Source: Nemertoderma westbladi
Taxonomy: Eukaryota > Animalia > Xenacoelomorpha
Length of the DNA: 64,000 bases
Reading direction: 5' to 3'
Assembly (NCBI GenBank): GCA_032718475.1
Contig: JAUCBJ010007509.1
Span: 6,086-70,085 of the forward strand
Below, in pieces: positions 5,250 through 38,368 of the stretch. Position 1 is the stretch's first letter, and the number at the start of each line of letters is the position of its first letter. The notes beneath the pieces were generated by a model that was given only the letters and a program-made list of their open reading frames with translations, was not told where the DNA came from and made no database searches. Made by a program: the position numbers and the translations under genes.

Positions 5250-5570
5250 CATTTTGGTGCTAGCACGAAAACTTGCCATATTACGCCAAAATTATGCCAA
5301 TAAATACCACTTGAATTGAGCTGAGCATTTGAAAAGTACGACACTAGAATCCATTTTCCTCAGAAAACGTAAAAGGTGAAATTATAGCATATTATTTATT
5401 ATAACTCAATTCAAAATTTTTGGATCAAACTGAAAAGTGCTGGATATTTGATTTTTTCATTTTTTGCCTACATAGAGGCCTGAAAATGCCATTTATATTA
5501 CTGTAGTAAACAGATGAATTTAAAAACGTCTTCAAGGGGATTCAGCCCCCCAATAAACCAATATACATTA
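5250..5570 (-). mobile_element. Diverged inverted fragment related to the 719-2237 element
   Basis: Reverse complement resembles ~940-1240 (TTTTGGTGCTAGCAC, AAAAGTGCTGG, TTTTTTCATTTTTTGCCTA). Confidence 0.65.
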
Positions 5571-19036: not shown

Positions 19037-19361
19037 AGTAGTATGGGATGCTAGCCCCTCCGCACAAAGTGGTAATGATGGGCTACGGGCCCATCATTAC
19101 CATCCATTTCTGGTACTGCAGCCAATCAGAAGCCTCCATTTCAACCTTTTGCAGTGGTCGTTATTATTTCAACCAATCAGATGTCAGCATTTCATCCATA
19201 ACCATGGTAACTTCTCAAGTTCCCGCATCTTCCGCTAGAGGCGTTATTAGTCACCCAACGCTAGTACTGCATCCAATCACCAACCTTTATTTTACAGGTG
19301 TTCGAGTGTCTACACTTAGCATCAGGTAACTTCTATTATTTTTCAAATCGCTATTTTTCAC
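19037..19361 (+). repeat. Polinton left TIR (325 bp)
   Basis: Reverse complement of 36844-37158 apart from 3 substitutions and one hairpin-forming replacement; contains three CCAATCA motifs. Confidence 0.95.
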
Positions 19362-19938
19362 CAACCATTCCATATTCATCTTCACATAGCCTAACCTCAC
19401 GATGCATGGCTAGCCCCCATCCCATCGCTACTCAATCCACAGCTGTTACCCACCCAACCACCCACCAACCAACCAATCAACAGCGATGTTTGCCTAACCC
19501 TACAGTTATTCACCTTTTCACAACGTTACCACCACTGCCACGTTACCACCACCACTGTATACTGTATATGGTGACGACGTGGCCACCAACTACACGCATC
19601 GTGCATATATTATATCGATTGCCAAATCCACGACTGCTCTCGCCAAATCAACAAACCAACTAGTATGATACATGAGATTCCGTCACGTTCTAGCTACGCG
19701 TATACGAGTATTAGTGATCATTATTACGCAATAATTTTTTTGTTTATACAGTAGTTCCCTACCAGCTAATCAACCAATCAATAAACCGAATTTAGGCTAT
19801 TTCTCAGTTTAAGACCTGTATTATTTTTGAAAATATCTTATATATATAATCTCTTGCTTTAATCGCAATTAATCATTTGTAATGGTTTTAGTTTAAAAGT
19901 TTTTACTTTGTTTGATTTACAATAAAATAAATTAAATA

Positions 19939-20385
19939 ATGTCTTCTGATTCCAATATGGTTATGCCAATGGTAAGGCATTCATTTTTTGCAGAAGATGG
20001 TCAAGCCTATATTGTTATTGATTATACAATTTACCGTCAGGGAGATGATAAATATAAAATTGAATTTTCTGAAAAAGCCAGGAAAGTTTTAAGCTCAATT
20101 GATATTGATGCTTCTGATAATAGTATTCATCTTTTAGATTACAACCTGAAAGCTGAGCATGGGGGAGGAAAATTAAGCAACATTTTACTATTATCCATGA
20201 TAGAGGGATTTATTGTTATTACACAATACAACGAAGCTGGTGAAAAGTTTGAAATATGGCTAAATCGGCATAGCCCCTACGAAATTATGTCTTTCTTTAT
20301 TGTAATGATTTCAAAAGAATCCTTTGTCGAACCTGAAGAATCAGCGGATAATGTTGAATATGTTGATAATATCATTGATTCTTGA
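19939..20385 (+). CDS. Polinton hypothetical protein (148 aa, acidic C-terminus)
   Basis: Intact ORF with TAAATAATG start, TATATATA ~95 bp upstream and CCAAT at ~19774; no recognised motif. Confidence 0.7.
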   Translation: MSSDSNMVMPMVRHSFFAEDGQAYIVIDYTIYRQGDDKYKIEFSEKARKVLSSIDIDASDNSIHLLDYNLKAEHGGGKLSNILLLSMIEGFIVITQYNEAGEKFEIWLNRHSPYEIMSFFIVMISKESFVEPEESADNVEYVDNIIDS

Positions 20386-20554
20386 CTTTTCCCTCTATAT
20401 TATAAATATTTTATGATTATATATAAAATTTTGTTGTTTTTAAATAATCGAAAATTGTAGTAGTATTTGTATATACAGTATAACAGTTTTGTTTGTTTGT
20501 TGTTGTTGTTGTGTATTGTGGTAATTATTTTCAATTTACTTTAAAATTTGGAAA

Positions 20555-21007
20555 ATGGATATTTTAAATGAAAAATGTCCAGTTTGCTATTCTAAGTTAT
20601 TGCAACAACATCGAGATTATTATAAATGTGAAAATAAACATGCAACTTGCGTACAATGTATTGTACAATATTCCAAAATGAATAATTATTGTTCTAAAAT
20701 TTGTCCTATTTGTCGCGCATCCATATCTAAGTTTAATATAAAGTTGGCAAGATACCAACCCTATTATTGGAAAGAGCTTCGCAATATAACTTATATTTCT
20801 GCGAAAAGTAATGATCCTGGAGATTTATTTACAATATTGGAGAATATTTTTTATAGAAACGTAGTACGACGCTGTTGCTACTATATTCCTTATTTTTTTA
20901 GCAGCGAACATAAAAAAATCATTAGCGCGAAATTCTCGGGAAGTGATTTCCAAACCGCCGATGTTACCTATCATTATTTCGCGTATAAAGATGCTCACCA
21001 TGCTTGA
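20555..21007 (+). CDS. RING-finger (C3HC4) protein, putative E3 ubiquitin ligase
   Basis: CPVC-x13-C-x3-H-x2-CVQC-x14-CPICR. Confidence 0.85.
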   Translation: MDILNEKCPVCYSKLLQQHRDYYKCENKHATCVQCIVQYSKMNNYCSKICPICRASISKFNIKLARYQPYYWKELRNITYISAKSNDPGDLFTILENIFYRNVVRRCCYYIPYFFSSEHKKIISAKFSGSDFQTADVTYHYFAYKDAHHA

Positions 21008-21226
21008 AATTACATCAGTCTATACTATAATTGGAAATAGCACCTTTTGCTGCAGCGAGCGTCACATACTGTAGTTGTGTCATATGTTAATTAAATATAC
21101 AGTACTCTAATATTATTGTAGTTCCAACAATTATTGTTATATACATAGTAATGGTGTTGGTTTATTGATATTGATATTGATATTATATTATATTATATTG
21201 TTGATATATCTTAATAATAATAATAA

Positions 21227-21907
21227 ATGGCTGACTTTAATTCAGGCCCATATAATTTAAACTTTCAAATGGGTACAAGTATGATAATTTCAGGGCCATC
21301 TGGTTCCGGAAAGTCAACCTTTGTGGGGAATTTAATTAAACACAAGAATGGTTGTTTCAACGAAGCCCCCTTGCGAGTATTGTATTGTTACGGGAGCAAT
21401 CCCCCGACTATTCCTGGTATTACTCACCTTTACAAAGGCTTGCCTGAAAATATAGATAGTTTAGTCAATAGTCGAGATTTATTAATTATAGATGATTTGT
21501 TAACAGAAACTGAGTCCAGTACAGCTTTAACTGTATTGTTTACTAAGGTGGCTCATCATTCCAATATATTTATTTGTTTTATAACGCAAAACATGTTTTA
21601 CGGTGGGAAGCATAACCGCACAAGATCAATTAATAGCCATACTTTAGTATTAATGAAAAATCCGAGAGACAGTCTATCGGTTTTAAATTTCGCGAAGCAG
21701 ATGTTACCAGGGCAGACCAAATTTTTAGTTGATTCCTATCAAGATGCGACAATTCAACCATTTTCACATTTCTTAATTGATTTACGACAGGAAACACCCG
21801 AACATTTAAGATTTAGATCTGATATATTTCGTAATCATAATTGTTACATTAAAAATTACACTGACTATAAACGTAGCGAAAATAATAATAATAATAATGA
21901 TAAATAA
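21227..21907 (+). CDS. A32/FtsK-type DNA packaging ATPase
   Basis: Walker A GPSGSGKS, Walker B LLIIDD, AHHSN..ITQN and KNPRD Polinton motifs. Confidence 0.95.
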   Translation: MADFNSGPYNLNFQMGTSMIISGPSGSGKSTFVGNLIKHKNGCFNEAPLRVLYCYGSNPPTIPGITHLYKGLPENIDSLVNSRDLLIIDDLLTETESSTALTVLFTKVAHHSNIFICFITQNMFYGGKHNRTRSINSHTLVLMKNPRDSLSVLNFAKQMLPGQTKFLVDSYQDATIQPFSHFLIDLRQETPEHLRFRSDIFRNHNCYIKNYTDYKRSENNNNNNDK

Positions 21908-21944
21908 TTAATATTTTGTAACAATTTTCAATAATGTTGCAACA

Positions 21945-22210
21945 ATGAAAAGACTTGTGCAGAAATATCGTAACGAACTGGAATTTCTACGCAGCGCTAC
22001 CCCTCAACAAAGAACTTATTTTATTAACCATACCGCCAGTAACGAATTAATACGGCTCATTGTAAATACTGCATTAAATGTTCTAAAAGGTAATGTACAA
22101 TTGACCCCTCATTCATTTAGAAATATTCGCCGCTATAAGAAGGTATTGAAATCACTCAACCGTAAAACAAAAAATATATCAAGTTACAGAAAAAAGTTAA
22201 GTAATCAATT
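21945..22210 (+). other. Conserved small basic Polinton protein (ALNVLKGNV motif), here fused in frame to integrase
   Basis: ATPQQR..ELIRLIVNTALNVLKGNVQLT..KKVLKSL matches a Polinton virion-module protein that is normally a separate ORF. Confidence 0.7.
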
Positions 22211-23264
22211 AAGTAAAGTTAAGTTAAGAATTTATTTAGATCCTTCATCCCCCGCGGGATTTGCAAGTGTTGCAAAATTAGCAAAAGCTGCAAACATCAA
22301 ACCGGCGCAAGCCCAGAAATGGTTGAGTGGACAAAAGACATACACCCTTCACGCTCCACGTAGACAACATTATCCAACATCTAAAATATTTACGGGAGGC
22401 ATAAAAGATATATATATGATAGATCTGGTGGATATGCAGCAATATAAGTCGCAAAATAATAATTATAACTATATATTAACGTGCATTGATGCCTTCAGTC
22501 GGCTTGCTTTTGCCTATGCTATGAAAACAAAAAAGGGTGTTGAAATTATTAGTATATTGCAAAAAATATTCCAGAAAGGAAAACCAAACAGAATCGCCAC
22601 GGATCAAGGTTCTGAGTTTCTAAATAAATCTGTAAGGAAATATTTAGATACGTTAGGTATACAGTATTACGTAATGTATTCTGTGAATAAGGCGGCTATT
22701 GTCGAGAGATTCAACAGAACCCTAAAAACAAAGATGTTCAAAATTTTCACGCAAAGGGGAAATAATATTTGGATAAAAATTTTACCTAAGCTTATCTCGG
22801 CTTATAATAGGTCGTATCATAGAACAATACAAATGACACCTATTGAAGTTAATAAATTTAATGAAACTGAATTAATGAATAGATTATATGGGAAATATAG
22901 ACAGATAAATCACAAGAAAATAAAATTTAAAGTTGGAGATACAGTACGATTATCTATTGCTCGTACTGCTTTTGCTAAAGGCTATTGAGAACAATGGACA
23001 CGTGAATTATTTATTATTCATCGGGTCAGGTTGGATAGAGTACCAGCGGTAATGTTCGATATTAAGGACAGCACCGGAGCTATAATAAAGGGCTCATTTT
23101 ATTCTCACGAACTCCAAAAGGTCCACCCGAATAGTAATATTTATCTAGCAATTGACAAAAAAAATATTGGCAAACTGAAAGAACGTGTACACAATGGGAA
23201 GAAAGAATATTTAGTCCGATTCATCGGATCCAAGAAACAGTCCTGGGTACAGCATATTCAATAA
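22211..23264 (+). pseudogene. Retroviral-like (rve/c-integrase) integrase with C-terminal chromo-like domain; one premature stop
   Basis: YLDPSSPAGF, YTLH, IDLVDM, IDAFSR, TDQGSEF, VERFNRTLK; KGY*EQWTRELF with TGA at 22986-22988; same frame continues to GSFYSHELQKV and KEYLVRFIG..SWV. Confidence 0.93.
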
Positions 23265-23513
23265 GCTTAGGTTTATACTGTATATTAATTCATTTTGGTC
23301 GCATATGACCGTAATTAATCAATAATATTAACTCGAATGATATTACTATATCTATAGTTCATCCGCTTTAAATAAAGCTAGTAAAATATTGATCCCTCGC
23401 ATATACTGTAGAAGATGCTGGCAATGAACGTGGTCACAGATGTCTATAATTTAACATTATACTGTATGTACAAAGGAGTCAAGTAGAGAGAGCGAGCTTA
23501 AATAATAATAATA

Positions 23514-24386
23514 ATGGCCACAGATACATATATCACTCTACTTTCAGATAGCTCATTGAACACTTATCCCAATAATAATCCTAGTGAGTTTACTGTTGAT
23601 TTAGCCGAAGAATTATATATTGGTCCAAACGCTAAAATTGGACTTGCCGAACTTCAATATCAAGCAACATACAGTAATATTACGCTGCAAACTCAAATCT
23701 CACTGTCAATCGGGGTAGATGCAAAAGATGCCAAATTATATAGTTTATTTCCTGGTATGCATAACTCTATTCAAGTGATTATTGATGATATAAATAAACT
23801 GTTTAATTCTGAAGCGAAATATAGAGATTTCGAATTCATTTTTAATACAAATAATTCTAGAATTAAATTTAAATTTCCTAAAAAGTTGAAAAAAATACAA
23901 TTAAGTCTACGCGGCGATTTAATACAAATTCTAGGCTTAAAACCGTTATTGGATCGGAATCATCCGGATATTCCAAATTGGGATATATACAGTACCACTA
24001 CAGTAGATGAATTAAGCAATATAGAACAGCCGATATTAATTTTAAATTATAGCGGGCCAAAAATTTCGGAAATTGGCATTTTAGATTTTCCAGCTCCCAC
24101 GAATATAACACGTAATAAAGACACTATCTTTATATACACAGATATTATTAAGAGCTCATTTGTTGGCGACGCTTTAGCTCCGCTCTTAAGAACCTGCCCT
24201 TTAACGCAATTAAATCGAAAATATATTAATCACGAATACGAGAGCATTTGCTATTTCCCATTGTTGAATAAAAAACTAAAAACAATCTTAATTACTTTAC
24301 GTGACGGCCAAGGCCAATTAATTAACTTCAGCGGAGGTCGCACTGTTATAACACTTAAGTTAATACGGGGTGGCGGCGATGGATGA
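23514..24386 (+). CDS. Minor capsid protein (penton) 1
   Basis: YITLLSDSS..YPNN..EFTVDL..IGLAEL and IYTDII..VGD..APLLR..YFPL..ITLRDGQG..F..ITLKL penton motifs. Confidence 0.9.
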   Translation: MATDTYITLLSDSSLNTYPNNNPSEFTVDLAEELYIGPNAKIGLAELQYQATYSNITLQTQISLSIGVDAKDAKLYSLFPGMHNSIQVIIDDINKLFNSEAKYRDFEFIFNTNNSRIKFKFPKKLKKIQLSLRGDLIQILGLKPLLDRNHPDIPNWDIYSTTTVDELSNIEQPILILNYSGPKISEIGILDFPAPTNITRNKDTIFIYTDIIKSSFVGDALAPLLRTCPLTQLNRKYINHEYESICYFPLLNKKLKTILITLRDGQGQLINFSGGRTVITLKLIRGGGDG

Positions 24387-25224
24387 GTTCTACGTTAGAC
24401 TACCGAGTAATTCCTGTCCAATTGATTTTCCCCGCAATAGCGCTAGTAATTATCAGATAAATTTCCACGGCGCCTTACCTATAAATCCAAACGAAAACTG
24501 GGTGGTAGGTATAAAAAGTATATTTTACTTAGCAACGTTGCCGTCCATGTATAACAATGTAGAGAATGTTATTTTATTAAAAAAAGGGAAAAAAATTTTT
24601 GAGGATACACTTCCATCTGGTTTATTCTACAGTATCAATGACATTATAGATTATTTTAACACGGGGGCGTTGAAAGATAAATTACAAATAGTTGAAAATA
24701 CTCAGCAAAATAGATTGCAATTTATTTTAGGGAAAACTGTGCGAGAGTTATTTATAGGTCAACAATTAGCCTATTATTTTGGAATTACTGAAAATAATCT
24801 CGGTGCGAATTTAAATCCAAATTTTAAAATTATTTTGAAGACGAAAAATAATATAAAGGGTTATTTAATAAAGGTTATCGGAAATGGAGAAAAGGCTTAC
24901 CAGATGGTATTTTTATGTCCTCAACCACCCAACTCTATTCCAGAACCTAAGTCGAACATGTACGTGACTACTAATATAATTGAAAATCAATATATTAACG
25001 ATTTTGGTTTAGCTTTACTTCGTCGTGTTGCGATACCTGATGATGTGAAATATGGTAGCGTAATAAATAAAGAATTTGTCAAGGATACAATTCATTATAT
25101 CCCTGTAAAAAAATCATATAAGATAACATACATTCATATTGAAATAACAGACAAAGAAGGAAAAGATTTGAATTTTGAATACGGCACAACTTCTATTACA
25201 TTACACTTTAAACGTATAAATTAA
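24379..25224 (+). CDS. Minor capsid protein (penton) 2
   Basis: FYVRLPSNS..FPRN..WVVGIKSI and MYVTTNII..LLRRV..HYIPV..IEITDKEG..F..ITLHFK; ATG overlaps the stop of penton 1. Confidence 0.88.
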   Translation: MDEFYVRLPSNSCPIDFPRNSASNYQINFHGALPINPNENWVVGIKSIFYLATLPSMYNNVENVILLKKGKKIFEDTLPSGLFYSINDIIDYFNTGALKDKLQIVENTQQNRLQFILGKTVRELFIGQQLAYYFGITENNLGANLNPNFKIILKTKNNIKGYLIKVIGNGEKAYQMVFLCPQPPNSIPEPKSNMYVTTNIIENQYINDFGLALLRRVAIPDDVKYGSVINKEFVKDTIHYIPVKKSYKITYIHIEITDKEGKDLNFEYGTTSITLHFKRIN

Positions 25225-25225
25225 A

Positions 25226-25786
25226 ATGGATTCTGATTTATTTCAAAGATACAGTAAACCTCAATATGGGGGTTCAGACTCTAATCTTGCTGTTTTTAAA
25301 GGTGGAAGAAGTACCAGAGGCTCGACGCAAGTTCCTGTTTTTCGTGGTGGTTCATATATTGACCCTTACGGTCAACAAATTGGCACATTTGGTCCAAACT
25401 TAAAACAACGTTGTTTTCAGCGTTATCGTAGAGGTATGCGGGCAAATCAACACGGAGAAGGTATATTTACAGACGCCTTATCGACATTAAAAAAAATTGG
25501 TAAGCCATTAGCTAAAAAAGTTTTACAGAAAGCTTTACCATTTACCACAAAATTTATGAGACAACACGTAATACCAAAAGGTAAGCGGGTCTTACATCAG
25601 CAGGCTAATACAGTTATTAATAAAGCATTAAATAAAATGAAACCGTCAACAAGGTCGGTTGTAGAAAAAGTTTATAGAGATTTAAAGCGACCCGCTAGAC
25701 CAATGTCTATGAACATACATCATCGACGTAGTAAAAAGAGAAATATAAAAGGCAAACTGAAACACTGCGAAAAAAGTATTTTTTAA
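25226..25786 (+). CDS. Basic virion core / membrane-penetration protein precursor with protease-site-like motifs
   Basis: QYGG, FKGG, FRGG and QHGEG motifs, then amphipathic IFTDALSTLKKIGKPLAKKVL; K/R-rich; lies between penton and MCP as in other Polintons. Confidence 0.75.
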   Translation: MDSDLFQRYSKPQYGGSDSNLAVFKGGRSTRGSTQVPVFRGGSYIDPYGQQIGTFGPNLKQRCFQRYRRGMRANQHGEGIFTDALSTLKKIGKPLAKKVLQKALPFTTKFMRQHVIPKGKRVLHQQANTVINKALNKMKPSTRSVVEKVYRDLKRPARPMSMNIHHRRSKKRNIKGKLKHCEKSIF

Positions 25787-25788
25787 TA

Positions 25789-26829
25789 ATGTCAATTATT
25801 AAGGAATTAGATTTATTTTCTACACAGCCAATACAGACTGAATTTAAAGCAAAGCAATATGAAACAATTTACCCTGTATCTAATCTCAGAAGTGAATCTA
25901 GGGAGGTCACCTTCCTTGTACCCAGATCCAATGAATTCTATACGAAACTGCAAGACGCGTTATTAATTACAAAATGTACAGTACGTTGGGATAGACGACT
26001 TGAAAACTCCCATATTTATATGCTGAATTACCCAGCTGAAACTATGTGGAGTGATATTAAAATAGACCTTAATGAGAAGCAGGTTGAAAATAGCAATAAC
26101 CATTATTTCTACAAGTCGTACTTATCCAATTTATTATTTACAACTTACGAGGATAAAAATGGGCTACTGGGTGCGGGTGGCTTTCATCAACCTTTATCTG
26201 AACACGGAAATGAAATTGATCCCGGCGCGCATCCTATTGCCGATGCCTTTAGTAAACAAATGCAATTTGTAAGTGGATTGACGATTGATTTTGATACTGA
26301 AACTAAAATAATACAACCTAGGTATGATTTAAGAATGCATTTTAGAAAAGTATCAAATTCGTTTATTTTTCAAATCACTCCAAACGCAAACGCCGTGACA
26401 AATCTTCGACTAGAATTAGATGAAATAAAAATTCTAATCCCTAGAATGGGGGTTAATCCAGTAATAGAAAGCAGTCACCTAAAAGGTTTAGAGAGCTACG
26501 ATATTGAATATCAATTTCAAAAGAAAGAGGTAACTACATTTACTATTCCAGCTCAAACCACTCAATTAATGAAAAACATTAATACATATATTAACGGTTA
26601 TGGAGGTAATAATATAGACCATGAAACCTACTTAGGTAATTGTCCCATCCTATCCTGGGACCTAACCGCCGATGGCTACGTTAGAGATCCGCAACCCTCG
26701 ATATATACTAACGGTCAATTAAAATTAAGATTTGCCGAACCGTTGGTTGAAACCATAAATGTAATCGTTTTTAATATTTATGATCAATCATTAAGTTTAA
26801 ATAGCAGGAAAGAAATACATATCGATTAA
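25789..26829 (+). CDS. Major capsid protein (double jelly-roll), apparently internally shortened
   Basis: ELDLFSTQPIQT..IYPV, HYFYKSYLSNLL, WDLTAD, LKLRFAEPL..INVIV; only 346 aa. Confidence 0.9.
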   Translation: MSIIKELDLFSTQPIQTEFKAKQYETIYPVSNLRSESREVTFLVPRSNEFYTKLQDALLITKCTVRWDRRLENSHIYMLNYPAETMWSDIKIDLNEKQVENSNNHYFYKSYLSNLLFTTYEDKNGLLGAGGFHQPLSEHGNEIDPGAHPIADAFSKQMQFVSGLTIDFDTETKIIQPRYDLRMHFRKVSNSFIFQITPNANAVTNLRLELDEIKILIPRMGVNPVIESSHLKGLESYDIEYQFQKKEVTTFTIPAQTTQLMKNINTYINGYGGNNIDHETYLGNCPILSWDLTADGYVRDPQPSIYTNGQLKLRFAEPLVETINVIVFNIYDQSLSLNSRKEIHID

Positions 26830-26831
26830 GT

Positions 26832-27284
26832 ATGTTATCTACAGAGGACCTTGATATGTTTCCAGTGGGTGGTCACTATTTGGGCGCGTTTCCAGCTAAT
26901 AAATTACCTAAATTAGATAATAATAAGCGGCAGGATTATGGCTTGATAGTAAATACTGATAGAGAGCATCTGCCCGGGATTCATTGGATCGCGATATATA
27001 TACGAGATAATGAAGCCGAAGTATTTGACTCGTTTGGACCAAAATATCCAAACAGATGCATCGAAAAATGGCTTGAGAAAATTTCCGCAAGGTGGCGTAC
27101 TACACGCAAACAATTTCAAGACCCCAGGAGGACCACATGCGGTCTATACTGTCTTTATTATTTGGTAAATCGTATTCACACAATCTATCCAATGAGAGCG
27201 TTTACAAATAATGTGGAAATCAATGAAATTATATTATATAAATGGCTTGTTAATTATTATAAATTAAACCAACAAACTTTGTAA
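26832..27284 (+). CDS. Adenain-like cysteine protease (virion maturation)
   Basis: IVNTD..PGIHWIA (His), FDSFG (Asp), FQ..TTCGLYC (Gln, Cys). Confidence 0.95.
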   Translation: MLSTEDLDMFPVGGHYLGAFPANKLPKLDNNKRQDYGLIVNTDREHLPGIHWIAIYIRDNEAEVFDSFGPKYPNRCIEKWLEKISARWRTTRKQFQDPRRTTCGLYCLYYLVNRIHTIYPMRAFTNNVEINEIILYKWLVNYYKLNQQTL

Positions 27285-27315
27285 TTAATCATTTAACTTT
27301 TGTTTATCAGATAAA

Positions 27316-27912
27316 ATGGATAATATTATTTTTGTTGATTTTCAATATTATAAGATAGACAATAAGGAGTATCCTGTAGTATTTAAAGAATTTGCTATTT
27401 TCGATTCTAATTACACCAAAACTAATGTAAAGACGTTTTTAATTAAAGGCCCGTCTAATATTAAGTTATCAGCTTTAGATGCAGCTCACGTAAACAATTT
27501 ACGGGATATGACTTCTCACTTGCCCTGGAACTACGGGGACATTTCTCAAGATGACTTTAAAAAATATATGAAGAGACATTTAAAATATAAAAAAAATATT
27601 CATGTATTTGGGTTGCTGAAACGGGCAATATTAGTTTCCCAACTCGATGTTCACGAGCCAAATTCGGTGGAGAAATTGGGAATATATAAGCAATATCACG
27701 ATTATTTAACACCTTGTCGATTTCACGACCGATTCACTACAATGGAAAGTAAATGTGCGTTCCACTTAAACATAAGGGATAACTGTCTGCGATACTGCTC
27801 AGCAAAACGTGTTGGCAGGTATGAGGCTCTACACTTTTTCATGAGAAAGCGTTTAACTGCGACTGATGATGATAAACAGAAAGAAATAACTGCGGTGGAA
27901 GATGTACTGTAG
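27316..27912 (+). CDS. DEDD/RNase H-fold 3'-5' exonuclease-like Polinton accessory protein
   Basis: FVDFQ..FKEFAI..HLPWNYGDI..IHVFG..K pattern with a Cys/His tail, as in Polinton DEDD-like ORFs; Q replaces E in motif I. Confidence 0.6.
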   Translation: MDNIIFVDFQYYKIDNKEYPVVFKEFAIFDSNYTKTNVKTFLIKGPSNIKLSALDAAHVNNLRDMTSHLPWNYGDISQDDFKKYMKRHLKYKKNIHVFGLLKRAILVSQLDVHEPNSVEKLGIYKQYHDYLTPCRFHDRFTTMESKCAFHLNIRDNCLRYCSAKRVGRYEALHFFMRKRLTATDDDKQKEITAVEDVL

Positions 27913-28262
27913 GTTTACTCTAAGCATGTAATGTGATGGGATAATATAATTTTATTTTAGTGATGATCTTGATGTTAATATAAAAAATATAATAAAATAT
28001 AATTTTTTACAACAAGTTCTCTAAAAAAGAGTCAATTGCGCTAGGTTAACTATACACATTTAACAATATGATGTAGACGTAACATGTACAGTAAGTATTC
28101 TCGATATCATTCTAATATAGATGTACTGGTATTGTGAAACAGCCTATACATCGCAAACTAATAACACATACAGTAGTTGACTAGTAATATTAGTCAGAAA
28201 ATGCAACATAATCTGTATAGGGTGTAATGATAACCTGTTGGTACCGGTACTGATAAATTATA

Positions 28263-29435
28263 GGCCTATCTACAACTGTCATCCACTTTATCAGTACCGG
28301 TAGTGTTTTACTCTTCCAACACTGTAGTTTCTGTCTAGTGGTATCGGTACAGCAGTAATCTGATGCATGCAGGGGTCTCACATATAGGGATTAGATCACC
28401 TATCCAAACAATACAGTACTGCTGTACTGTCGCTGTTCTTGATGTAACATCATAATCAGATAAAGCATACTGATTTCCTTTGATTAGCATTGTACTGCAG
28501 TACCGGTACGACAGTACCTGCAGTAACAAACTAAACCAATGTATACAATATCGTGAGCTAGTTACAATCAGATGTGTACGCAGTCAGCCACGTTGCGGGG
28601 ATGCGGTCAACCTCACAGCTAGCCTCGCAGCTCCTATCCACAACTGTCATCCACTTTATCAGTACAGCAGTAATCTGATGCAATAGCATTTGTTTTTTTT
28701 CACCTATAAGGATACTGCTGTCTACCCGAACCTTGATTAGCATAGGCCTACAGCTGTCATAACCTAGATTACATGCAGGGGTCTCACATATAGGGATTAG
28801 ATCCCCTACCTAAACAATACAGTACTGCAGTACTGTCGTTGTTCTTGATGTAACAGCATAATCAGATAGAGCATACTGATTTCCTTTGATTAGCATTGTA
28901 CTGCAGTATTAATGTAACAGTACCTGCAGTAACTGTAGTACAAACTAAACCAATGTATACAATATCGTGAGCTAGTTACAATCAGATGTGTATGCAGTCA
29001 GCCACGTTGCGGGGATGCGGTCAACCTCACAGCTCCTATCCACAACTGTCATCCACTTTATCAGTACAGCAGTAATCTGATGCAATAGCATTTGTTTTTT
29101 TTCACCTATAAGGATACTGCTGTCTACCCGAACCTTGATTAGCATAGGCCTACTGCTGTCATAACCTAGATTACATGCAGGAGTCTCACATATAGGGATT
29201 AGATCACCTACCCAAACAATACAGTACTGCAGTAGGCCTACTGTCGCTGTTCTTGATGTAACTGCGTTGTCAGATAGAGCATACTGATTTCCTTTGATTA
29301 GCATTGTACTGCAGTACGGTACCGGTACCACAGTATTAATGTAACAGCACCCGCAGTAACAAACTAAGTCATTGTATACAATATCATGAGCCGGATATAA
29401 TCAGATGTGTACACAGTCATGGGATGCGGTCAACC
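28263..29435. repeat. ~370-400-bp tandem triplication in the intergenic region between the convergent gene blocks
   Basis: ACAACTGTCATCCACTTTATCAGTAC recurs at 28272, 28640 and 29042; copies 2 and 3 are highly similar, copy 1 has indels. Confidence 0.9.
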
Positions 29436-29439
29436 ACGC

Positions 29440-29640
29440 AGTCAGAGCAGCATCGCTGCCAGCCTCGCAGCCAGCCTCGCGGCACGCAGCAGCCTCGCAG
29501 CCAGCCACCCTCGCAGCCAGCCTCGCGGCACGCAGCAGCCTCGCAGCCAGCCATGCAGCCAGCCTCATGGCGCGCAGCAGCCTCGCAGTTGATCATGCAG
29601 TCAGCCAGCCAGCTACGCAGCTAGGCACGCAGTCAGCCCG
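29440..29640. repeat. GC-rich short-unit repeat (GCAGCCAGCCTCGC variants)
   Basis: Repeated cagcctcgcagccag / ggcacgcagcagcc units within otherwise AT-rich DNA. Confidence 0.85.
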
Positions 29641-29726
29641 TGAGAGTCATACTTATTCAAACGAGGTTAGTTTTCCCTAACTACCGATAGATTGATTGAA
29701 AAATAATAATGTTTAATTTTCACCTT

Positions 29727-30272
29727 CTAATCACCAACACCTAAAGTCACAACACCAAACATTAATAAATAATTAACAAGTTTACTAAATATAGGGTAAT
29801 AAATGTGAAATTTGCTAGGTGAACACATTAAAGTACATTTACCAGTATGAAAGCAACAAATGACTACGGTATTATTTATTCTTATTTTGCAATTATTAAA
29901 AATTTCAGGTTCATATATAACTTGAAGTTGTACATTATCAAAGACAACATAAAACCCGGTATTGTTTATCAATAACCTATAGACTACAGACTTAATACTA
30001 AAAATATAAGTACATAAATTAACAGATTTTAAAATCAAATTAATACTAGTTTTATCAAATATATGCTTTTTTACTTTTTGGAAATTATACTTACTGCCTA
30101 ATAATGTAATACGACCATTTTTAAATATTAATAATGTGGCACCAAATATCTTATATATAAACTGATTTGGTTTGAGTATGTGTTTACCAGATAATTGATT
30201 TTTTAATTCTTTAAAATTAATCGCTGACACTTGCTGGCAACTTACATTCTTATTGACTATCTGATAGTTCAT
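29727..30272 (-). CDS. TATA-box-binding protein (TBP)-like protein, core domain only (181 aa)
   Basis: Two TBP repeats: YQIVNKNVSC..INFKEL..FIYK..ATLLIFKNGRITLLGSK and YEPEIFNNCKIR..VICCFHTGKCTLM, compared with the TBP consensus FKIQNIVGSC..YEPELFPGLIYR..LLIFVSGKIVLTGAK; start overlaps the end of pPolB by 23 bp. Confidence 0.85.
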   Translation of the reverse strand: MNYQIVNKNVSCQQVSAINFKELKNQLSGKHILKPNQFIYKIFGATLLIFKNGRITLLGSKYNFQKVKKHIFDKTSINLILKSVNLCTYIFSIKSVVYRLLINNTGFYVVFDNVQLQVIYEPEIFNNCKIRINNTVVICCFHTGKCTLMCSPSKFHIYYPIFSKLVNYLLMFGVVTLGVGD

Positions 30273-33200
30273 TGTTTGGTTCCCGATAAATAGGTATATT
30301 GTTTTTCTTTATCGGTTTTTTGACCTTTGTTTGATAGTGACCCCAGGGAAGCGAATGATTTTTATTAACCCAATAAAGTTTATCATCAAATGCGCTGAGA
30401 GCAAACTTATCACGTGCTACAGTGTACACTTTGTGTAATTTGCTCTGAAATTGATGTATTTCTTTTGAAATTTCTTCGTTTGAGTTATATGCTCTTACAT
30501 AATCTTCGTGGCAAATATTTTTTTCCACGACAGCTCTTGTAATACCTTTTGCTCTACGAATATTGGATTCATTGAATTCCAAAATTGAATATAATTTTGG
30601 TCTTAAAAATACTGCTTGTTTAATTTCACGTGAGGCTAGTTCGTCTTTACAGTAATAGAGTCTGGATTTATTTTTATCGCTGTAGAGAGGGTGATCCTTG
30701 GGGTAATTGGATGTATCTAAAATATTATTTTTAATTAAGGCTTTTAAGAAATTACTCTGCGATGTATTATAGTAACAACCTATTAAAGAGTCCGTATCTG
30801 ATGCTACAATTTCAATTCGACAGTTTAATTCTTTCTCAATAGGTAGCAATTTATCATAATACAGCTGATACATATCCAATTTAGCCAAGTCCAAGACAGT
30901 ACTACCTATATAGACCGGCTTATCGAGAGTTACAGAGTCTTTTACTAATAAGTGACCCGATAAGGAATCGTTATAAATCATGAAATTTTCGTGATTTATA
31001 CGTTTGACTAATTGGTCACATTTTTCTTTACTATTAGCGATACGAAAGTTGCATCGGTCCCTTATTTTTTCAATCGTTTTTCCAAATAACGAATTATTCA
31101 GAAGCTTCGCGACAGCTGTTTCAATATACGTTTTTGCTATTCTCCTTTGATTAATATTAAAATCTATATAGGGTTTAAATACAAAGTCTTGATGGAAAGA
31201 ATACAATTTATGGAGCTTAGTAACAATTAAACCTTGTTTTATATAAAATTTTAACAGTTTTAAATTTACATGATAGAATTCCTTATCGAATTGTGTCAAC
31301 ATAAGTTTTGGTGCACACATCTTATAATTGCTATTAGTGCCTCTTTGTTTACAAACATGATTATATTGTTCCCTCATATATGGTGAAAGCATTGTCTCAT
31401 TTATACTTAAATGTTCTGGAGCTAAGGGTAGTTCTAATGTACGATCGTGAATATCTTTGGGATATTTCAAATCGCAAATTAAGAAAAACCCAATATCCCC
31501 TTCAGTATCAAGATTTGATAAATATTTTATTAGTTCTTCTGGAGCAGCATTCTCTAAATATGTAACGTTGACTTGTTCAAACCCTGAAACAGGTAGCTTT
31601 TTACTTAAATTACCTGAATACAAGGAATTAAAATCTATATTGAAAATATGACACTCTTCCTTGCTTGGATCATAATTATCAGGATCTGGTATATTTGATT
31701 CTATGTAATGCTTTCGACAGAATGAAACCCCTCCTCTAATAGATGCTTCAAAATCTCTATATGTTTGGTAATCTTTTATTAATGCTAACTTACATTTATT
31801 GTATTTCAGGGCGCAATCATAAGTGAAAGCTGCGATACTGCAATAATAAACTACTTCTAATTCGTAGTTTTGTCTACATACTCTCCTAAAGTTCTCAAAT
31901 ATATCAGCGAGGAGACAAACATCGAGTTTTAAGTATGCTAAAAGATAATCCTTGAGATTCACACAGTCAAACTGACTCCATGATGCGTTGGCAAAACTAT
32001 ATTCCTCGGGAGTACAGGTATTTTGTGTTAATTTACTATAAAATTTGTCTATTGATGGTAATTTCGAATCATTGAATTTATTTAAATCTGACAGATACTC
32101 GTAGGGAAATATACCTTTTCGTTTAATTGTTGCATTATTTAAATTTGGATAAAAATGTTTCATTTGCTGTTCAGTAATTGGTAGAACTGATGTTATATCC
32201 TCGCTGTCTATATCCTTTGTTGAACAATCAACTAAAGTACTTAGGGAAAAGGATAAAAATTGATATGTGTCTAAGACACGTAGCTCGATTTTTGTTTTTT
32301 GTTCTTTCACTGGTATATGCATACTCAGTGAAATATACCTTTCAGAATTTTTAGGGATTACCTTTATATCCCAATCGGAATATTTGTTATTGCTAAACCC
32401 AACTTGCAAAAGAAAATGCAAATCGTAGAGATTGCAGTTGTGTGCAGCGAGTATATACATGTGTCGTTTCAACGATAAAGAGCGGTTACATGCGTTACAA
32501 GCGGCTGCTATATAGTTACCAGTAATATGTGAGTGATGTTTATTTTTCTCAGACTTATCCTTAAATAAAACATCTACTTCGTTAAGTATAATCTTCTCTC
32601 GCGTATGGGTTTCTGCCCACTTATATAATTGGGTGATGTCATTATATACAGAGTCTAAAAAGTCTTGAATACAGTTGTTGTCGATTGTTTTTGTAAAGGT
32701 CTTCAAATAAAATTTTGGTGGATTGATTAATTCACTACTAGGAACAATTAAATAACTTACAGCGCATGGAATATGATTCTGAATAAATTTACTGTTGGTG
32801 GCTGGCTCCAAAATAGATTCTATGTCAAAATATATTACAAACAATGCTGGTAATGTTCTGTCTAAATTTCTAAAGCTAATGTGAGTTCTTTTTTCAGACG
32901 GTAGCTTCTCAACTTGACTTTTTCCTCGATAACAAGCAAGACGGTGACGTTCTAGAACATTTCTGTAGAAATGCGACAAATACCGTTCGCAATATTTCCT
33001 ACATCTAATATGCTTACCTGTTGTATTCATCAAACGATTCAAGTTAGTTATGCAAACATAATGTGATTGTTTACTCGTATTCTTATTTTTTACAAGTAAT
33101 ATATTCAATAACTCTTTATCTGGAGTGATTTTACTAAATGGAGCCTGTCTTAATATAGATACTCGATTGTTGTCGTAGAGTAATAAATTAATTATATATG

Positions 33201-34224
33201 CTGAATTCTGTTTTTCAAAAAGTTTAATTGCAAGCTGCCATTCTGTTGGATAATCTTTGTTCCCATTGTCAAAAATAAAATGACTCATATAATTTTTGTA
33301 CTGCGAAGTACGATATTTGTTGTTCTTCACTTTGCTACTAAATTTTGTGGCTATAATTGCCCATTTAAAACAATCATTATCAGCCGTTTGTATATTTATA
33401 ACACATCGTTTACTCGATAGAGCCTTAGGTAACTCCATATAACCGTGACCTTTATATTCCAGTGACTTACACTTGGATTCAGCTACTTTAATTTCCACTC
33501 TTAATAAAGATTTAACGCGCTACCCTGAGCCACGAGTGTTAAATATGGCTATTTTTTGCATTAATTTTTCTAGTACATACTCAAACCATGTGTCAAAACT
33601 TTCATGTGAATCTACGGTATTAACTGAACCACCTGGAGAACTAAAATAGAAAGTTTCTTCTTGGTCACCCTCTGAAAAATGTGATCGATACATGAGTATA
33701 TTCACACCTAGCCAGGGTCTAAGTACATTCATTTCGCTAAGTTTTCCTAATAATAAGTTTTTGATGTGTGGTAGAATATGAACTATGGATGAATGAATAT
33801 CAGGAAAATCTTCATCATTTGGAAGATTATAAACATAGATTTCTAAACGGTTATCGTGTGCGGATCGTTCGATGCTAAAAATTGATGGACCTTGACCAGA
33901 TTTCAGTCTTTTTCTAGATGCTACAGTATTGTTTTGGTTCCGTTGTGATGGTCTAACATGATAATAACGTTGGTGGCAGTCGTGACGTAAATAATTCTCA
34001 TATAAATACTCTTTATTACAAGTAGGGCAAGTTTTTTCATACACGTAAAGCTTCATTTCTTTACATCCCGTAGTTGTTTCATGTCGTTTGCATATTTCTT
34101 CACGTGAACATTTCACATGACAATTAAAACAATTGTATTCTTCAAAATGAGATTTCACGTGTGTTAAATAATTTCGTTTAGAAATTTGAAGAGGACAAAA
34201 TGGACATTTCAATTGTTTATCCAT
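30250..34224 (-). pseudogene. Protein-primed family B DNA polymerase (group-2 type, ~1324 aa) with N-terminal C2H2 fingers; one premature stop
   Basis: ORFs 33520-34224 and 30250-33498 are in frame across GSG*RVKSLLRVEIKV (TAG at the conserved GSGW); ExoI FDIES, ExoII HN..YD, KGIFPYEY, ExoIII YLKLDV, DFNSLY, KLLNNSLFGK, DTDS; endonuclease VII-like HSHITGNY..ACNACN. Confidence 0.96.
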
Positions 34225-34778
34225 CTCTTTATTATCCTAAAAACAATTTAAAATTAATATGAATATTGTTATATATATAATCAAAAAAAATTCATAAGCT
34301 ACTCAACACAAATAAAATATAATATCTAAACTTTAATTAATTTAATATTTTCAGAATGAGCTCGATTGAATCAGTTGAGCTCTTTATATATATATATATT
34401 TCAAGTTTCTACTTATACCAACCAATCATAAATAACAGTTACATTGGAAACTAATATCATAAATGAAGTTGCTTTTACAACTGAATTCTTTATAATAAAA
34501 TCAAGTCTAAACCAAGATGTGCATAATGCGTTTTTAATTTTCATTGATAAAGTAGGTTTTACATGCTAATGTTTTATTATGGTGGTGTAAACTCATGCAT
34601 TTACATGGGAATGTTTTATACCTAATCCCATGCTCACATTAAATATAAACTATCACCAATATTTACTCAATAAAGTCACCTTTACATGCAAATACTTTAT
34701 AATAATCACGCTTTGTGATAAAAAGTTACCTTTACAAGTTAGTGTGAAACTGAAAAAAAGTCTCTAGTTAATAATAAA

Positions 34779-35822
34779 TCAATCTGATACTGTTTTTATA
34801 TGTTCCTTATTGTAATCTGCTACCTCTTCACTTGCTTTTGTAACTTTTATTTTCTTTGTAGGTATAGAATCATTGTTGGGAATGGAAGATGTTTGAGATG
34901 TAGATCTGCGCTTTCTATCACTCGAGGTCTCTTCGATGTATGTCTTTGGATTAAATGTGGATGAAACTACTTCTGGAAATGACTTATTAACCTTAAACTT
35001 CCAAGTTGGTGGATATAGAATCGCGAAACCGTCTGTTATATCAGTTGATGAAACATTTAACATCATATCGTAGAGAAACTCTATATATGGTATGTCTTTA
35101 TCGTAATGTAACTGTAAATATTTGCTTTCCTTGTCTGTAATAATTACTTTTTTTTCTTGTACATTTATTTTTACTTTAAGTCGGTCAGATAAAGCTTTAT
35201 CGTCCGTATCTAGCTCTGAAAAGACACCTTCGTTACTAATTTCATAATTCCATTCATACCACAATGAATTTACTTCCGATGCTGTTAAGTTAAACCCATT
35301 ATAATACCTAAGACCAATAGCATCAGAATATCTAGCTGAAATCTCCCATAGTCCCATATAAGTCGCTCCTTTATATTTGCTTACAAAACCAACAAAAGAT
35401 GGGTTGGTTAAATTAACAACAGAACACTGATTTATTATTTCGAGTGGTGGTGATAACAATTCTAATATTTCTGTCTTACTCTGAAGCAATAAATTAATGA
35501 GTGATTTGTTTAGAATTTGACATTTGCCTTGCTTCTGAATATATACGTTTTCAGTAATAACACAGGTGGAAATATTTAACTTTCCTCTTGCAAATTCTAT
35601 ATTAGGATAAATATTACCTCTTGAAACTGGTGATTCCTTTTGTCGGTTGATTAATATTTCTAAGACGTCTAGAAGGTAGAGTGTATCCTGGTAAGAGAAG
35701 CACGTTGTTACATTGCTATCGCTTGAGAGTAATATAAGGTACTTGCCATAAACAATACTACAGGTATATTTATTAAATGTAAATTTCCAAGTATTGCTTG
35801 AAGTTTTTTTAAATAAATCCAT
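34779..35822 (-). CDS. Polinton protein with a possible PC4/Sub1-like ssDNA-binding domain (347 aa)
   Basis: Intact ORF; FVGFVSKYKGATYMGLWEI..YNGFNLTASEVNSL resembles PC4 (VTVSEFKG..IREYY..KGISLT.EQW..L); NLS-like RKRR and KKIK in the tail. Confidence 0.55.
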   Translation of the reverse strand: MDLFKKTSSNTWKFTFNKYTCSIVYGKYLILLSSDSNVTTCFSYQDTLYLLDVLEILINRQKESPVSRGNIYPNIEFARGKLNISTCVITENVYIQKQGKCQILNKSLINLLLQSKTEILELLSPPLEIINQCSVVNLTNPSFVGFVSKYKGATYMGLWEISARYSDAIGLRYYNGFNLTASEVNSLWYEWNYEISNEGVFSELDTDDKALSDRLKVKINVQEKKVIITDKESKYLQLHYDKDIPYIEFLYDMMLNVSSTDITDGFAILYPPTWKFKVNKSFPEVVSSTFNPKTYIEETSSDRKRRSTSQTSSIPNNDSIPTKKIKVTKASEEVADYNKEHIKTVSD

Positions 35823-36261
35823 AATTAGAATGAAAACTATTTTGAAAAATAAAAACTAAATAAATGATTATTAGAATGTAAAACTTCGGTTTATATGCTT
35901 GCTTTAATAAAACAGAGTGACTTACAGTGAGGAATATAGTTGCTTCGTGTAACAGATGCAACGTGTACAGCTAAATTTATTACATTAGCGTGAGTTAGAG
36001 AGTGAAATAGCAGTAACGTGTAACAGATGCAACGTGATCAATGCTAGCCCTGTCATTCTAACTTATATTCAACTTAGTTGATCGACCAGTTACATCGATA
36101 AAAGAAATCGATTATTATTAATAGTCGAATTAATGTATTCTACGCTATAGTAATTATGTTAAGGAACTAGAAGCTATTTATAAACATCTGCTACCTGTGA
36201 TGAAGATGAAGAATTCAATGACTATGGTATAACTCAGATATTTATCGCCTTTTTCTCTCGA

Positions 36262-36335
36262 GGTTGGATGGAAGAGTGATTGGTGAGTTGTGAGGAGTTA
36301 TATCGGTCCCGGGTTCGAACCCTGTTGAATATTTT
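36262..36335 (+). promoter_or_regulatory. tRNA-like Pol III internal promoter inside the Polinton
   Basis: A-box-like GGATGGAAGAGTGA (~36266), B-box GGTTCGAACCC (36312-36322) in GGTCCCGGGTTCGAACCCTG context, TTTT at 36332. Confidence 0.5.
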
Positions 36336-36336
36336 G

Positions 36337-36964
36337 TTATCTGAAAAATTGCAAAATTAAATTTAGTTACTAGTGAAAAATAGCGATTTGAAAAATAATA
36401 GAAGTTACCTGATGCTAAGTGTAGACACCCGAACACCTGTAAAATAAAGGTTGGTGATTGGATGCAGTACTAGCGTTGGGTGACTAATAACGCTTATCTG
36501 AAAAATTGCAAAATTAAATTTAGTTACTAGTGAAAAATAGCGATTTGAAAAATAATAGAAGTTACCTGATGCTAAGTGTAGACACTCGAACACCTGTAAA
36601 ATAAAGGTTGGTGATTGGAGGCAGTACTAGCGTTGGGTGACTAATAACGCTTATCTGAAAAATTGCAAAATTAAATTTAGTTACTAGTGAAAAATAGCGA
36701 TTTGAAAAATAATAGAAGTTACCTGATGCTAAGTGTAGACACTCGAACACCTGTAAAATAAAGGTTGGTGATTGGATGCAGTACTAGCGTTGGGTGACTA
36801 ATAACGCTTATCTGAAAAATTGCAAAATTAAATTTAGTTACTAGTGAAAAATAGCGATTTGAAAAATAATAGAAGTTACCTGATGCTAAGTGTAGACACT
36901 CGAACACCTGTAAAATAAAGGTTGGTGATTGGATGCAGTACTAGCGTTGGGTGACTAATAACGC
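36337..36964. repeat. Four near-identical 157-bp tandem units overlapping the inner part of the right TIR
   Basis: Units start at 36337, 36494, 36651 and 36808; only isolated substitutions between them. Confidence 0.97.
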
Positions 36965-37158
36965 CTCTAGCGGAAGATGCGGGAACTTGAGAAGTTACCA
37001 TGGTTACGGATGAAATGCTGACATCTGATTGGTTGAAATAATAACGACCACTGCAAAAGGTTGAAATGGTGGCTTCTGATTGGCTGCAGTACCAGAAATG
37101 GATGGTAATGATGGGCTACGGGTGACTTTGTGCGGAGGGGCTAGCATCCTATACTACT
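36844..37158 (-). repeat. Polinton right TIR (315 bp)
   Basis: Ends ...GGGGCTAGCATCCTATACTACT; inverted copy of 19037-19361. Confidence 0.95.
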
Positions 37159-37164
37159 GACGTT

Positions 37165-38368
37165 TCGACCTATAAGGCCAGCTGATTCAAATGCTGTCAT
37201 TCGACCACCGGTTCAGTTTACATCGCAATCTACGACTTCGAGGAAGACTTGTGAGCCTACCGAACAACGGAGACCAGTGGATACGCGACAGTTCAACCAG
37301 TTTACATCGCAATCTACGACTTCGAGGAAGACTTGTGAGCCTACCGAACAATGGAGATCAGTGGACGATGTTCCGAAACGAAACGTTAGAATTTGTATGA
37401 CGCAACGGACGCGAGCACGTCGACCACCATATCCAGATGATAGTAGTACTTCGAGCGAATCGGATTACCCGAAACGCGAGGTATTTAGAACAGGGGCGGC
37501 CGATGAATATAAACGCGAGCGTTCAGACAACTCCTTTGTAGACAATCCTCCACAGAATACACCAACACAGAAGGCGTTACAACCAACGGACGCAATCAGT
37601 ACACAACAGTTCGCCGACATCCTGCGACCAGTTGTTAACAAGTTGGCTCAGATCGAGGAACGCTTGCAGGAAGTTCACACCAACAGTTCGAGAAATTCCG
37701 AATTCGAACACAATAGAAACCCAAAGGTTCCGCAAAGACAAATACCATCGACCAATACTTCATATCAGGGAAAAGCGCCAAGAAGGGACATCAACCAGAT
37801 TACCAACCAAGGACGCGAAACTCTGAACGTTGCCGAGGAAATAGCGAAATTCGCAGCTAGACAAGGACTACCGGTGCAACAACCACCTAAGTTTTCCGGT
37901 AGCTCAAAACACTGGCACACTTTCATAGACTATATCGAATCTCAGATCGCCGTGTGCGCCTTTACATCACGGGAGAAGTTTAATTACCTGCTTCAAACGT
38001 TGTCGGGAGAACCTAAACGTTTGGCGGAGACCTTCGTTGGTGTACCGGACGCCTTCGAACTAGCGTACGATCGTTTAACTTCGATCTACAGAGGTACAGT
38101 CAGCATGGCCAGGTCAGTGATAGAGGAACTCTGTAAGGGAGGGGCTATTACTAAACCCGTCGACTTATTGAAACTGGCTGACGAAATAAAGAACGCTATC
38201 ACTACTTTGAGATCCATTGGACAACTTGACTACGGGAATACCCCTACAGTCCTATTAAAGATCATAGGACGACTCCACCATCGACTTCGTCGGGAGTGGA
38301 GGAAGATCGAATACCAGCGGGAAGAGCGGGGTGGATTCTTAAAACTGGAAGATGTGTACAACAAGTAA
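37165..38368 (+). pseudogene. gag: BEL/Pao gag, 3' part (DUF1759-like domain), truncated
   Basis: PPKFSGSSKHWHTFIDYIES..EKFNYLLQTLSGEPKRL..AYDRLTSIY; in-frame 84-bp duplication at 37214/37298; no pol or 3' LTR follows. Confidence 0.88.

Follow-up and report, generated by a model that had tools for sequence, protein, structure and literature searches.

A Polinton in the window (by which we mean the whole stretch of 64,000 nucleotides that was analysed) encodes a homologue of the TATA-binding protein (TBP), a 181-amino-acid (aa) open reading frame (ORF) that we assign to a family of TBPs carried by one clade of Polintons, as delimited by their protein-primed DNA polymerase B (pPolB). Homologue searches, trees and residue comparisons show that this family is conserved, with substitution rates that indicate purifying selection in the relatives, and inheritance within one Polinton clade is the best explanation of its distribution. 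In two lineages of relatives, here called groups A and B, lineage-specific sequence boxes were shown to stand before virion-class genes and not before the TBP gene. With a little more belief than doubt, we propose that the Polinton TBP acts as a viral late-promoter factor, which would read an element-specific TATA-like box and bring the host's TFIIB and RNA polymerase II to the genes for virion proteins, packaging and integrase.

The Polinton spans 18.1 kb (19037-37158), begins with AGTAGT and ends with ACTACT, has terminal inverted repeat (TIR) arms of 273 nt at 99% identity, and is flanked by GATGTT and GACGTT, a 6-nt target duplication matching at five of six positions. The TBP ORF lies inside these TIRs, where a sequence-only reading of the window had placed it. 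The features of the element are as follows.

19037-19361, plus strand: left TIR, starting with AGTAGT and preceded by GATGTT at 19031-19036
21227-21907, plus strand: packaging ATPase (A32/FtsK-like), with weak Pfam P-loop and Pox_A32 matches and 38-42% identity to the relatives' ATPases
21945-23264, plus strand: retroviral-type integrase (Pfam rve, E 3e-12), with an in-frame stop in this copy at 22986-22988
23514-25224, plus strand: two ORFs, putative minor capsid (penton-type) proteins, resembling ORFs that relatives have in the corresponding block and without a Pfam match
25226-25786, plus strand: basic protein, probably of the virion core judging from position and composition
25789-26829, plus strand: putative double jelly-roll major capsid protein, aligned to seven homologues at the same position in relatives (one with a weak Capsid_N match, E 0.007) and missing about 72 internal residues in this copy
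26832-27284, plus strand: adenain-type cysteine protease (Pfam Peptidase_C5, E 4e-5, above the cut-off)
29727-30272, minus strand: Polinton TBP, 181 aa with two TBP lobes (Pfam PF00352), an intact single uninterrupted ORF
30250-34224, minus strand: pPolB, as ORFs 33520-34224 and 30250-33438, split by an in-frame stop at 33520-33522
34350-34400, minus strand: TATA-like run 31-41 nt before a TCATT Inr-like site, 133 nt upstream of the pPolB start
34779-35822, minus strand: 347-aa ORF at the head of the polymerase arm
36844-37158, minus strand: right TIR, ending with ACTACT and followed by GACGTT (five of six positions shared with the left target duplication)

The plus-strand arm carries the ATPase, the integrase, the two probable minor capsid genes, the basic protein, the capsid protein and the protease, and the minus-strand arm carries the 347-aa ORF, pPolB and the TBP. 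As regards membership of the Polintons, pPolB and a retroviral-type integrase are both present, each interrupted in the window copy; pPolB has 389 homologues at E<=1e-10, the best of them 31-41% identical, and its named relatives come from oyster, tick, flatworm, sponge and clam, a spread that makes an invertebrate host likely. The copy is decayed, with one in-frame stop each in the integrase and pPolB and about 72 residues lost from the capsid protein, and these lesions look private to it. The TBP region is covered by contigs of four sequencing runs at a depth similar to that of pPolB. In one of these data sets (run X3), near-identical contigs reach depths of 5,288-6,495 vs 7-35 for diverged contigs, which suggests a high-copy family, depth not being the same as copy number. 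Contigs about 95-99% identical to parts of the element are also found at low depth in another run (X5, organism B), and reflect a close relative, horizontal transfer or contamination. Family searches with the 347-aa ORF gave no family, and a PC4-like reading of it and of two small ORFs that precede the TBP in group B, suggested by a motif, found no support in searches.

Several further observations concern the element and its surroundings. Three extra tandem 157-nt copies of an inner TIR segment lie at the right end (36373-36807, in the region 36373-36964) and none on the left, a RING-finger ORF with weak Pfam matches occupies 20555-21007 in the left arm, and the two arms converge at 28000-29700 on GC-richer tandem repeats, where the contigs of sister copies have many deletions. 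The Polinton is inserted in the gag region of an LTR retrotransposon (DUF1759; window positions 17343-19238 and 37159-38368), which we take to be of the Bel/Pao type, and a 631-aa ORF of this region on the left flank runs on into the left TIR. Elsewhere in the window are a CACTA-type transposase fragment (11085-12848) and a Gypsy-type integrase ORF (62172-63638).

The ORF matched the Pfam TBP model (PF00352) with E 5.7e-9 and 36.1 bits, above the cut-off of 22.9, in two stretches, and the motifs ATLLIFKNGRITLLGSK and YEPEIF...CCFHTGK were located at residues 45-61 and 120-145, so that the intact, intronless ORF with both TBP repeats described in the sequence-only reading stands. A profile of six viral or archaeal-like TBPs, gathered by motif with the window protein left out, recovered the window protein at E 4e-10 among 5,866 frames. 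As a single query, the protein found no TBP at E<=1 in the PDB, none among 41 word-sharing candidates from a set of 5.8 billion sequences, none among 1.84 billion representatives, and no relative among viral and metagenome contigs; it is therefore very diverged. The profile of the whole family matches 35 PDB TBP sequences (best E 1e-29). In the Atlas the window protein falls with TBP clusters at 0.95, a recognition flagged as below the Atlas threshold and used as a lead only. An AlphaFold model computed with the TBP-profile alignment reached a modest mean pLDDT of 55, with a poor C-lobe. Among 48,161 chains the three best matches of its N-lobe were the TBPs of yeast, human and Sulfolobus (Z 11.1, 9.7 and 9.5), with an rmsd of 1.8 over 86 residues to yeast TBP (7o4i_O), and many viral TBP/TFIID entries of BFVD matched the model as well, all of these being matches of a model that is not independent of the TBP alignment. 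A single-sequence model (pLDDT 41.9) gave nothing in Foldseek at E<=0.001. A TBP saddle was thus recovered for the N-lobe of the alignment-based model, with the C-lobe left at low confidence. An insertion of about 10 residues suggested by the first alignment disappeared on realignment. An ATTAAA 9 nt past the TBP stop codon is a possible poly(A) signal.

Relatives were collected by a pPolB alignment search, from which the best 80 of 103 confirmed metagenome loci were taken together with 7 viral loci, giving 87 in all. A TBP was found in 15 of these loci, always above the Pfam cut-off (E 5e-11 to 1e-23), and the TBP-bearing relatives have capsid, protease, ATPase and integrase genes wherever the contig is long enough. 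The pPolB tree comprised 79 rows (the window and 78 loci, nine loci with a short match having been dropped, the TBP-bearing L097 among them); all 15 rows with a TBP fell within one 54-row clade (SH-aLRT 100) and none among the 25 rows outside it. On contigs longer than 10 kb, a TBP was present in 7/7 loci inside the clade and 0/9 outside, counts that are not independent since the loci are related by descent, and the TBP-negative rows inside the clade were all fragments of less than 8.4 kb. Grouping of the loci is much the same in the TBP tree as in that of pPolB. TBP dN/dS was 0.08-0.23 in the eight unsaturated of nine pairs, which share members and five of which have a partly overlapping ORF; the corresponding range for pPolB was 0.065-0.13. 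In the window's own family, two TBP-ORF variants are listed among the sister copies, both synonymous. The window protein is 18-23% identical to 10 cellular TBPs, a divergence that, together with 15 Polinton homologues under purifying selection, agrees with the earlier judgement that the gene is no recent host retrocopy. In a 44-row TBP tree, the Polinton-context proteins including that of the window fell on one side (95/83; 99/94 with one giant-virus TBP). The branch of the window protein is 2.55 long, its identity to other Polinton TBPs is 16-25%, and a placement with eukaryote-like TBPs was not rejected by an AU test (p 0.144); residues shared with the family and the polymerase of the element are therefore further grounds for its membership, the polymerase likewise being a long branch inside the TBP-bearing clade. 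The tree thus groups the protein with Polinton TBPs, and the AU test leaves a eukaryote-like placement.

The family extends beyond these loci. Searched against a large database, its profile returned 107 proteins, some of them cellular TBPs and the others additional short TBPs of the Polinton type. Among entries P0121-P0215 are dozens more short metagenomic TBPs with Pro for Phe, many auto-annotated as TFIID TBP and listed unattached to a genomic context; for one of them (P0126) the longest contig, of 32,480 nt, is the same as that of a pPolB (P0033). Scans of viral contigs with the family alignment gave no Polinton-type TBP and one giant-virus-like TBP already known in the set, and the same scan of genome contigs gave a single 3.3-kb contig with a Polinton-type TBP (L156, JAJRUL010000009.1). 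The records of this TBP and of a pPolB (P0026) are labelled as bacterial MAGs and are probably misbinned contigs of eukaryotic viruses. Group-A elements (L074, L076, L099, L101, L113, L136) carry a parvovirus-type phospholipase A2 gene, usually near upstream of the TBP and usually behind YATAAAC, and L076 has a KilA-N gene too. In nine of the 15 relatives (L089, L097, L098, L100, L102, L105, L106, L109, L139) there is a conserved ORF, some 190-250 aa long and read in a different frame, whose overlap with the TBP start measures 200-440 nt; a family search gave no family for it, and it is a probable paralogue of the preceding 120-aa ORF (hhalign 77.5%).

Residues of the DNA face and stirrup were compared between 38 family members and 10 cellular TBPs. 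The window protein keeps N7, F50, E121, E123, F125 and F141 and has P35 at the first intercalating Phe. Three of the four intercalating Phe (F50, F125, F141) and the acidic YEPE stirrup (E121, E123) are accordingly retained, as the sequence-only reading had it, and with three Phe kept and the first replaced by Pro the protein is a non-canonical TBP homologue. Across the family, the first intercalating Phe is Pro in 35/38 members and Phe in 10/10 cellular TBPs, and at the C-lobe Asn position 35/38 members have Ser or Thr and 10/10 cellular TBPs have Asn. The second stirrup Glu is found in 38/38 and an acidic residue at the first stirrup position in 32/38, the N-lobe Asn in 37/38, and the three remaining Phe in 37, 38 and 38 of 38; taken together, the three Phe, N7 and both GK turns are kept at 36-38/38. 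The C-lobe position of the window protein is S95 in the alignment used, with N85 as an alternative register, and the protein probably shares the Ser-for-Asn change of the family. Two otherwise conserved residues are missing from the window protein, the Pro that follows the stirrup Phe and the Gly in the last strand. The net charge of the N-lobe helix is zero or negative in 25/38 family members vs +3 to +6 in cells, and +5 in the window protein. According to the available text of Ravarani 2020 (PMC7221094), Mot1 and other regulators dock on the basic patch of TBP, and the two C-lobe stirrup glutamates (C.L3.2 and C.L3.4) are TFIIB contacts; in the window protein the latter are present as E121 and E123.

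These residues also bear on the idea that the TBP of the window lineage is a drifting relic, or a separate old capture of a host TBP, functionally unrelated to the other Polinton TBPs. The very long branch, the AU result, the loss of the two otherwise conserved residues, the decay of the copy elsewhere and the want of a sharp box in the window element would all fit such an origin. It is nevertheless highly improbable in our judgement, as the protein shares the Pro-for-Phe change of the family and probably its Ser-for-Asn change, groups with Polinton TBPs at 95/83, comes with a pPolB on a long branch of the TBP clade, and has its ORF region covered in four runs at a depth like that of pPolB.

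The TBP gene starts (ATG at 30270-30272) within the terminal part of the pPolB ORF at 30250-33438, so that the two overlap by 23 nt, an arrangement already seen in the sequence-only reading. The coupling to the polymerase gene that had been read from it is not conserved: in 0/15 relatives do the two genes abut, 1-9 ORFs and 0.4-9.0 kb lying between them, which rules out conserved translational coupling. The TBP is downstream of pPolB and on its strand in 14/15 relatives and within 1.5 kb of it in 12/15, counts inflated by the retrieval of loci through pPolB on short contigs; in one relative it lies on the opposite strand, past the capsid gene. Proximity to the polymerase, together with a position directly upstream of the packaging ATPase in 3/15 relatives, would suit a TBP fold co-opted for DNA bending or genome handling in replication or packaging and not for transcription. 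We regard this as very unlikely, given the inflation of the linkage counts, the invariance of the TFIIB-contacting Glu and the presence of boxes before genes.

Promoter boxes were counted on the sense strand 15-130 nt before the ATG of curated genes; the words were first seen by reading upstream regions and then tested, and the counts include homologous gene positions in close relatives. YATAAAC precedes 22/43 genes in group A (antisense 0; shuffle mean 1.4) and 0/44 in group B, and TTAAGC precedes 22/44 genes in group B (antisense 1; shuffle mean 1.8) and 1/43 in group A, the CDS-tile backgrounds being 10/283 for YATAAAC in group A and 5/233 for TTAAGC in group B. In an unbiased scan of 6-mers, ATAAAC ranks first in L074 and L113 and second, tied at 7/12, in L076, and TTAAGC ranks first in L102, L098 and L100. 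Held-out relatives of group A had YATAAAC in 3/14 windows against a background of 0.016. None of five out-of-clade sets had a Bonferroni-significant 6-mer, and no significant box was found in the TBP-bearing L089 (12 genes) and L136 (0/5) or in group D (10 genes). The two box lineages represent 2-3 independent origins only. By gene class, partly inferred from position, boxes precede 30/42 virion-class genes and 1/15 TBP or pPolB genes (TBP 0/11). The usual distance from a box to the ATG is 30-100 nt; of the 44 boxes, 26 are intergenic, 11 fall within the coding sequence of the gene before, and in 7 the TAA is the stop codon of that gene. Poly(A) signals are disfavoured as an explanation because 11/44 boxes lie in coding sequence, and AATAAA is not enriched.

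A decoy or repressor that sequesters host TFIIB by means of the ExE stirrup, or occupies host TATA sequences to damp host transcription, with the boxes read by host TBP or some other factor, would account for a second stirrup Glu that never varies (38/38) beside an altered loop for reading DNA in the N-lobe. Group A also shows upstream enrichment of canonical TATAWAWR (10/43 vs 7/283). A pure decoy would have no need of the three intercalating Phe, N7 and the GK turns, kept at 36-38/38, and it leaves unexplained why the boxes differ by TBP lineage, spare the TBP gene and were not seen in the out-of-clade sets. We consider it unlikely.

The boxes could also be promoters for a helper-virus polymerase, or sites of another element factor such as a C2H2 zinc-finger ORF, with the TBP serving that system or uncoupled from it. 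Virophages have promoters for the polymerase of their helper virus, and the core of baculovirus-type late promoters is TAAG, which TTAAGC contains. Group-A elements do encode a C2H2 protein, and Inr sites 28-35 nt downstream of the boxes show no clear enrichment (TCA in 7/23 and 3/23 contexts for the A and B boxes, vs 0-7 in other bins). Other TAAG words are, however, not enriched in group B (TTAAG[AGT] 3/44, [AG]TAAGC 2/44), so that the group-B signal is stricter than DTAAG, and generic TAAG or TAAAT viral motifs were far weaker than the exact boxes. With boxes mostly 30-100 nt before the ATG and not at it, and with TATA and Inr pairs at Pol II spacing in the window, this account appears distinctly unlikely.

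In the window element, TATAA is enriched weakly: it precedes 10/13 genes, with 7 on the antisense strand, p 0.05 against shuffles and p 0.009 against CDS tiles (coding background 31/82). It also precedes non-virion genes, and YATAA is a weak candidate for the target box of this element. YATAA stands 28-35 nt before 4/9 upstream sites of TCAKT, which we take to be the Inr consensus, vs 10/107 element-wide, and the four genes concerned are all non-virion: pPolB, the 347-aa ORF and two other non-virion ORFs. The TATA-like run at 34350-34400 is a candidate host-type early promoter of the pPolB-TBP unit, and upstream of the 347-aa ORF a TATAAA is followed at 30 nt by a TCATT Inr-like site. The earlier suggestion that the TBP may redirect host polymerase to the virion block is indirectly supported by the boxes before virion-class genes in relatives; none is clear in the window element itself.

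Under the late-promoter reading, pPolB and the TBP would be expressed first, from host-type TATA and Inr promoters. The viral TBP, with its altered DNA face (first Phe to Pro, C-lobe Asn mostly to Ser or Thr), would then read a box such as YATAAAC or TTAAGC, and its ExE stirrup would dock host TFIIB, which is proposed because no TFIIB-like gene was detected in the elements: neither TFIIB nor VLTF3 matched among the ORFs scanned, a subset of ORFs and loci in which remote homologues could be missed. Host Pol II would next transcribe the virion, packaging and integrase genes, an early-to-late switch made by one protein of 160-200 aa. A more specific version, which we put forward tentatively and at somewhat less than an even chance, is that this is a private minimal switch of one old Polinton branch, in which a stripped TBP works with host TFIIB and the box (YATAAAC or TTAAGC) co-evolves with the TBP (for example with C-lobe Asn vs Ser/Thr).

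Comparison with known systems places the protein apart from each of them. KSHV ORF24, one of the TBP mimics of beta- and gammaherpesviruses, is, in the available text of PMC12529657, a TBP mimic that reads TATTWAA late promoters with host Pol II, the early genes having host-type promoters; the Polinton TBP would share with such herpesvirus mimics a nuclear DNA virus-type element, a TBP-like protein of its own, host Pol II and a dedicated late box, the last seen in two relative lineages and weak in the window element. ORF24 is described there as multidomain, binding Pol II directly and requiring five further viral activators, whereas the Polinton TBP is a bare predicted saddle of 160-200 aa that keeps the TFIIB stirrup and for which no partner activators were identified. 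The window protein, a bare 181-aa core, has neither the Pol II-binding N-terminal domain nor the vTA partner complex; it is therefore not a member of the herpesvirus-type mimics, which it would at best resemble in its way of working. Nucleocytoviricota and other viral TBPs, as far as the available text of PMC7221094 describes them, keep core DNA binding and have lost the basic N-lobe helix, as have most Polinton members; they are generally diverged at the TFIIB contacts and paired with a TFIIB of their own, whereas Polinton TBPs keep the glutamates and the ORFs scanned in their elements gave no TFIIB or RNA polymerase gene. The same available text has no occurrence of polinton or Maverick. With cellular TBPs (PF00352; yeast 7o4i_O, human 5fur_A) the Polinton TBP profile has the two lobes, and probably the saddle fold, in common; the differences are the 18-23% identity, the missing N-terminal extension, the Pro at the first Phe and the C-lobe Asn replaced in 35/38.

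A search of the literature on Polintons with TBP, TATA or promoter, which left subscription literature and Repbase mostly outside, found one relevant report, Starrett et al. 2021 (PMC8502044; preprint 10.1101/697771). In the available text, a TBP label appears in the Fig. 5 legend for MELD viruses with adintovirus-like PolB, so that, as in the window, a TBP-like gene is annotated in at least one polinton-like element; the label belongs to a section on non-animal datasets and stands in the legend only. Neither an analysis of a TBP family, of its selection or of its residues nor a promoter box is given in that text, and the readable supplement text has no TBP label for the animal adintovirus maps. 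In the portions available of other sources, PMC10675990 places TBPs in mirusvirus-like elements and not in Polintons, PMC10748475 has neither 'transcription factor' nor 'promoter', 10.64898/2026.06.19.733378 neither 'TATA' nor 'TFII', and PMC11296320 no 'promoter', and the term matches in PMC12220804 and PMC13037468 are an author's name. Apart from the label in Starrett 2021, the search found nothing more on a TBP in Polintons.

The late-promoter reading bears on how Polinton capsid genes are switched on and on how far Polintons are autonomous as viruses. If the more specific version, with a private and co-evolving box, holds, these elements would have an early/late viral programme independent of helper viruses, and their TBPs would form a natural collection of variants in which DNA specificity has been re-written. 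If the late-promoter reading is right, no smaller system of viral late transcription would be known, and the TBP mimics of herpesviruses would be a case of convergence with it. It would further mean that TBP, among the most conserved of DNA-binding proteins, can be re-targeted to other boxes with its TFIIB contact kept.
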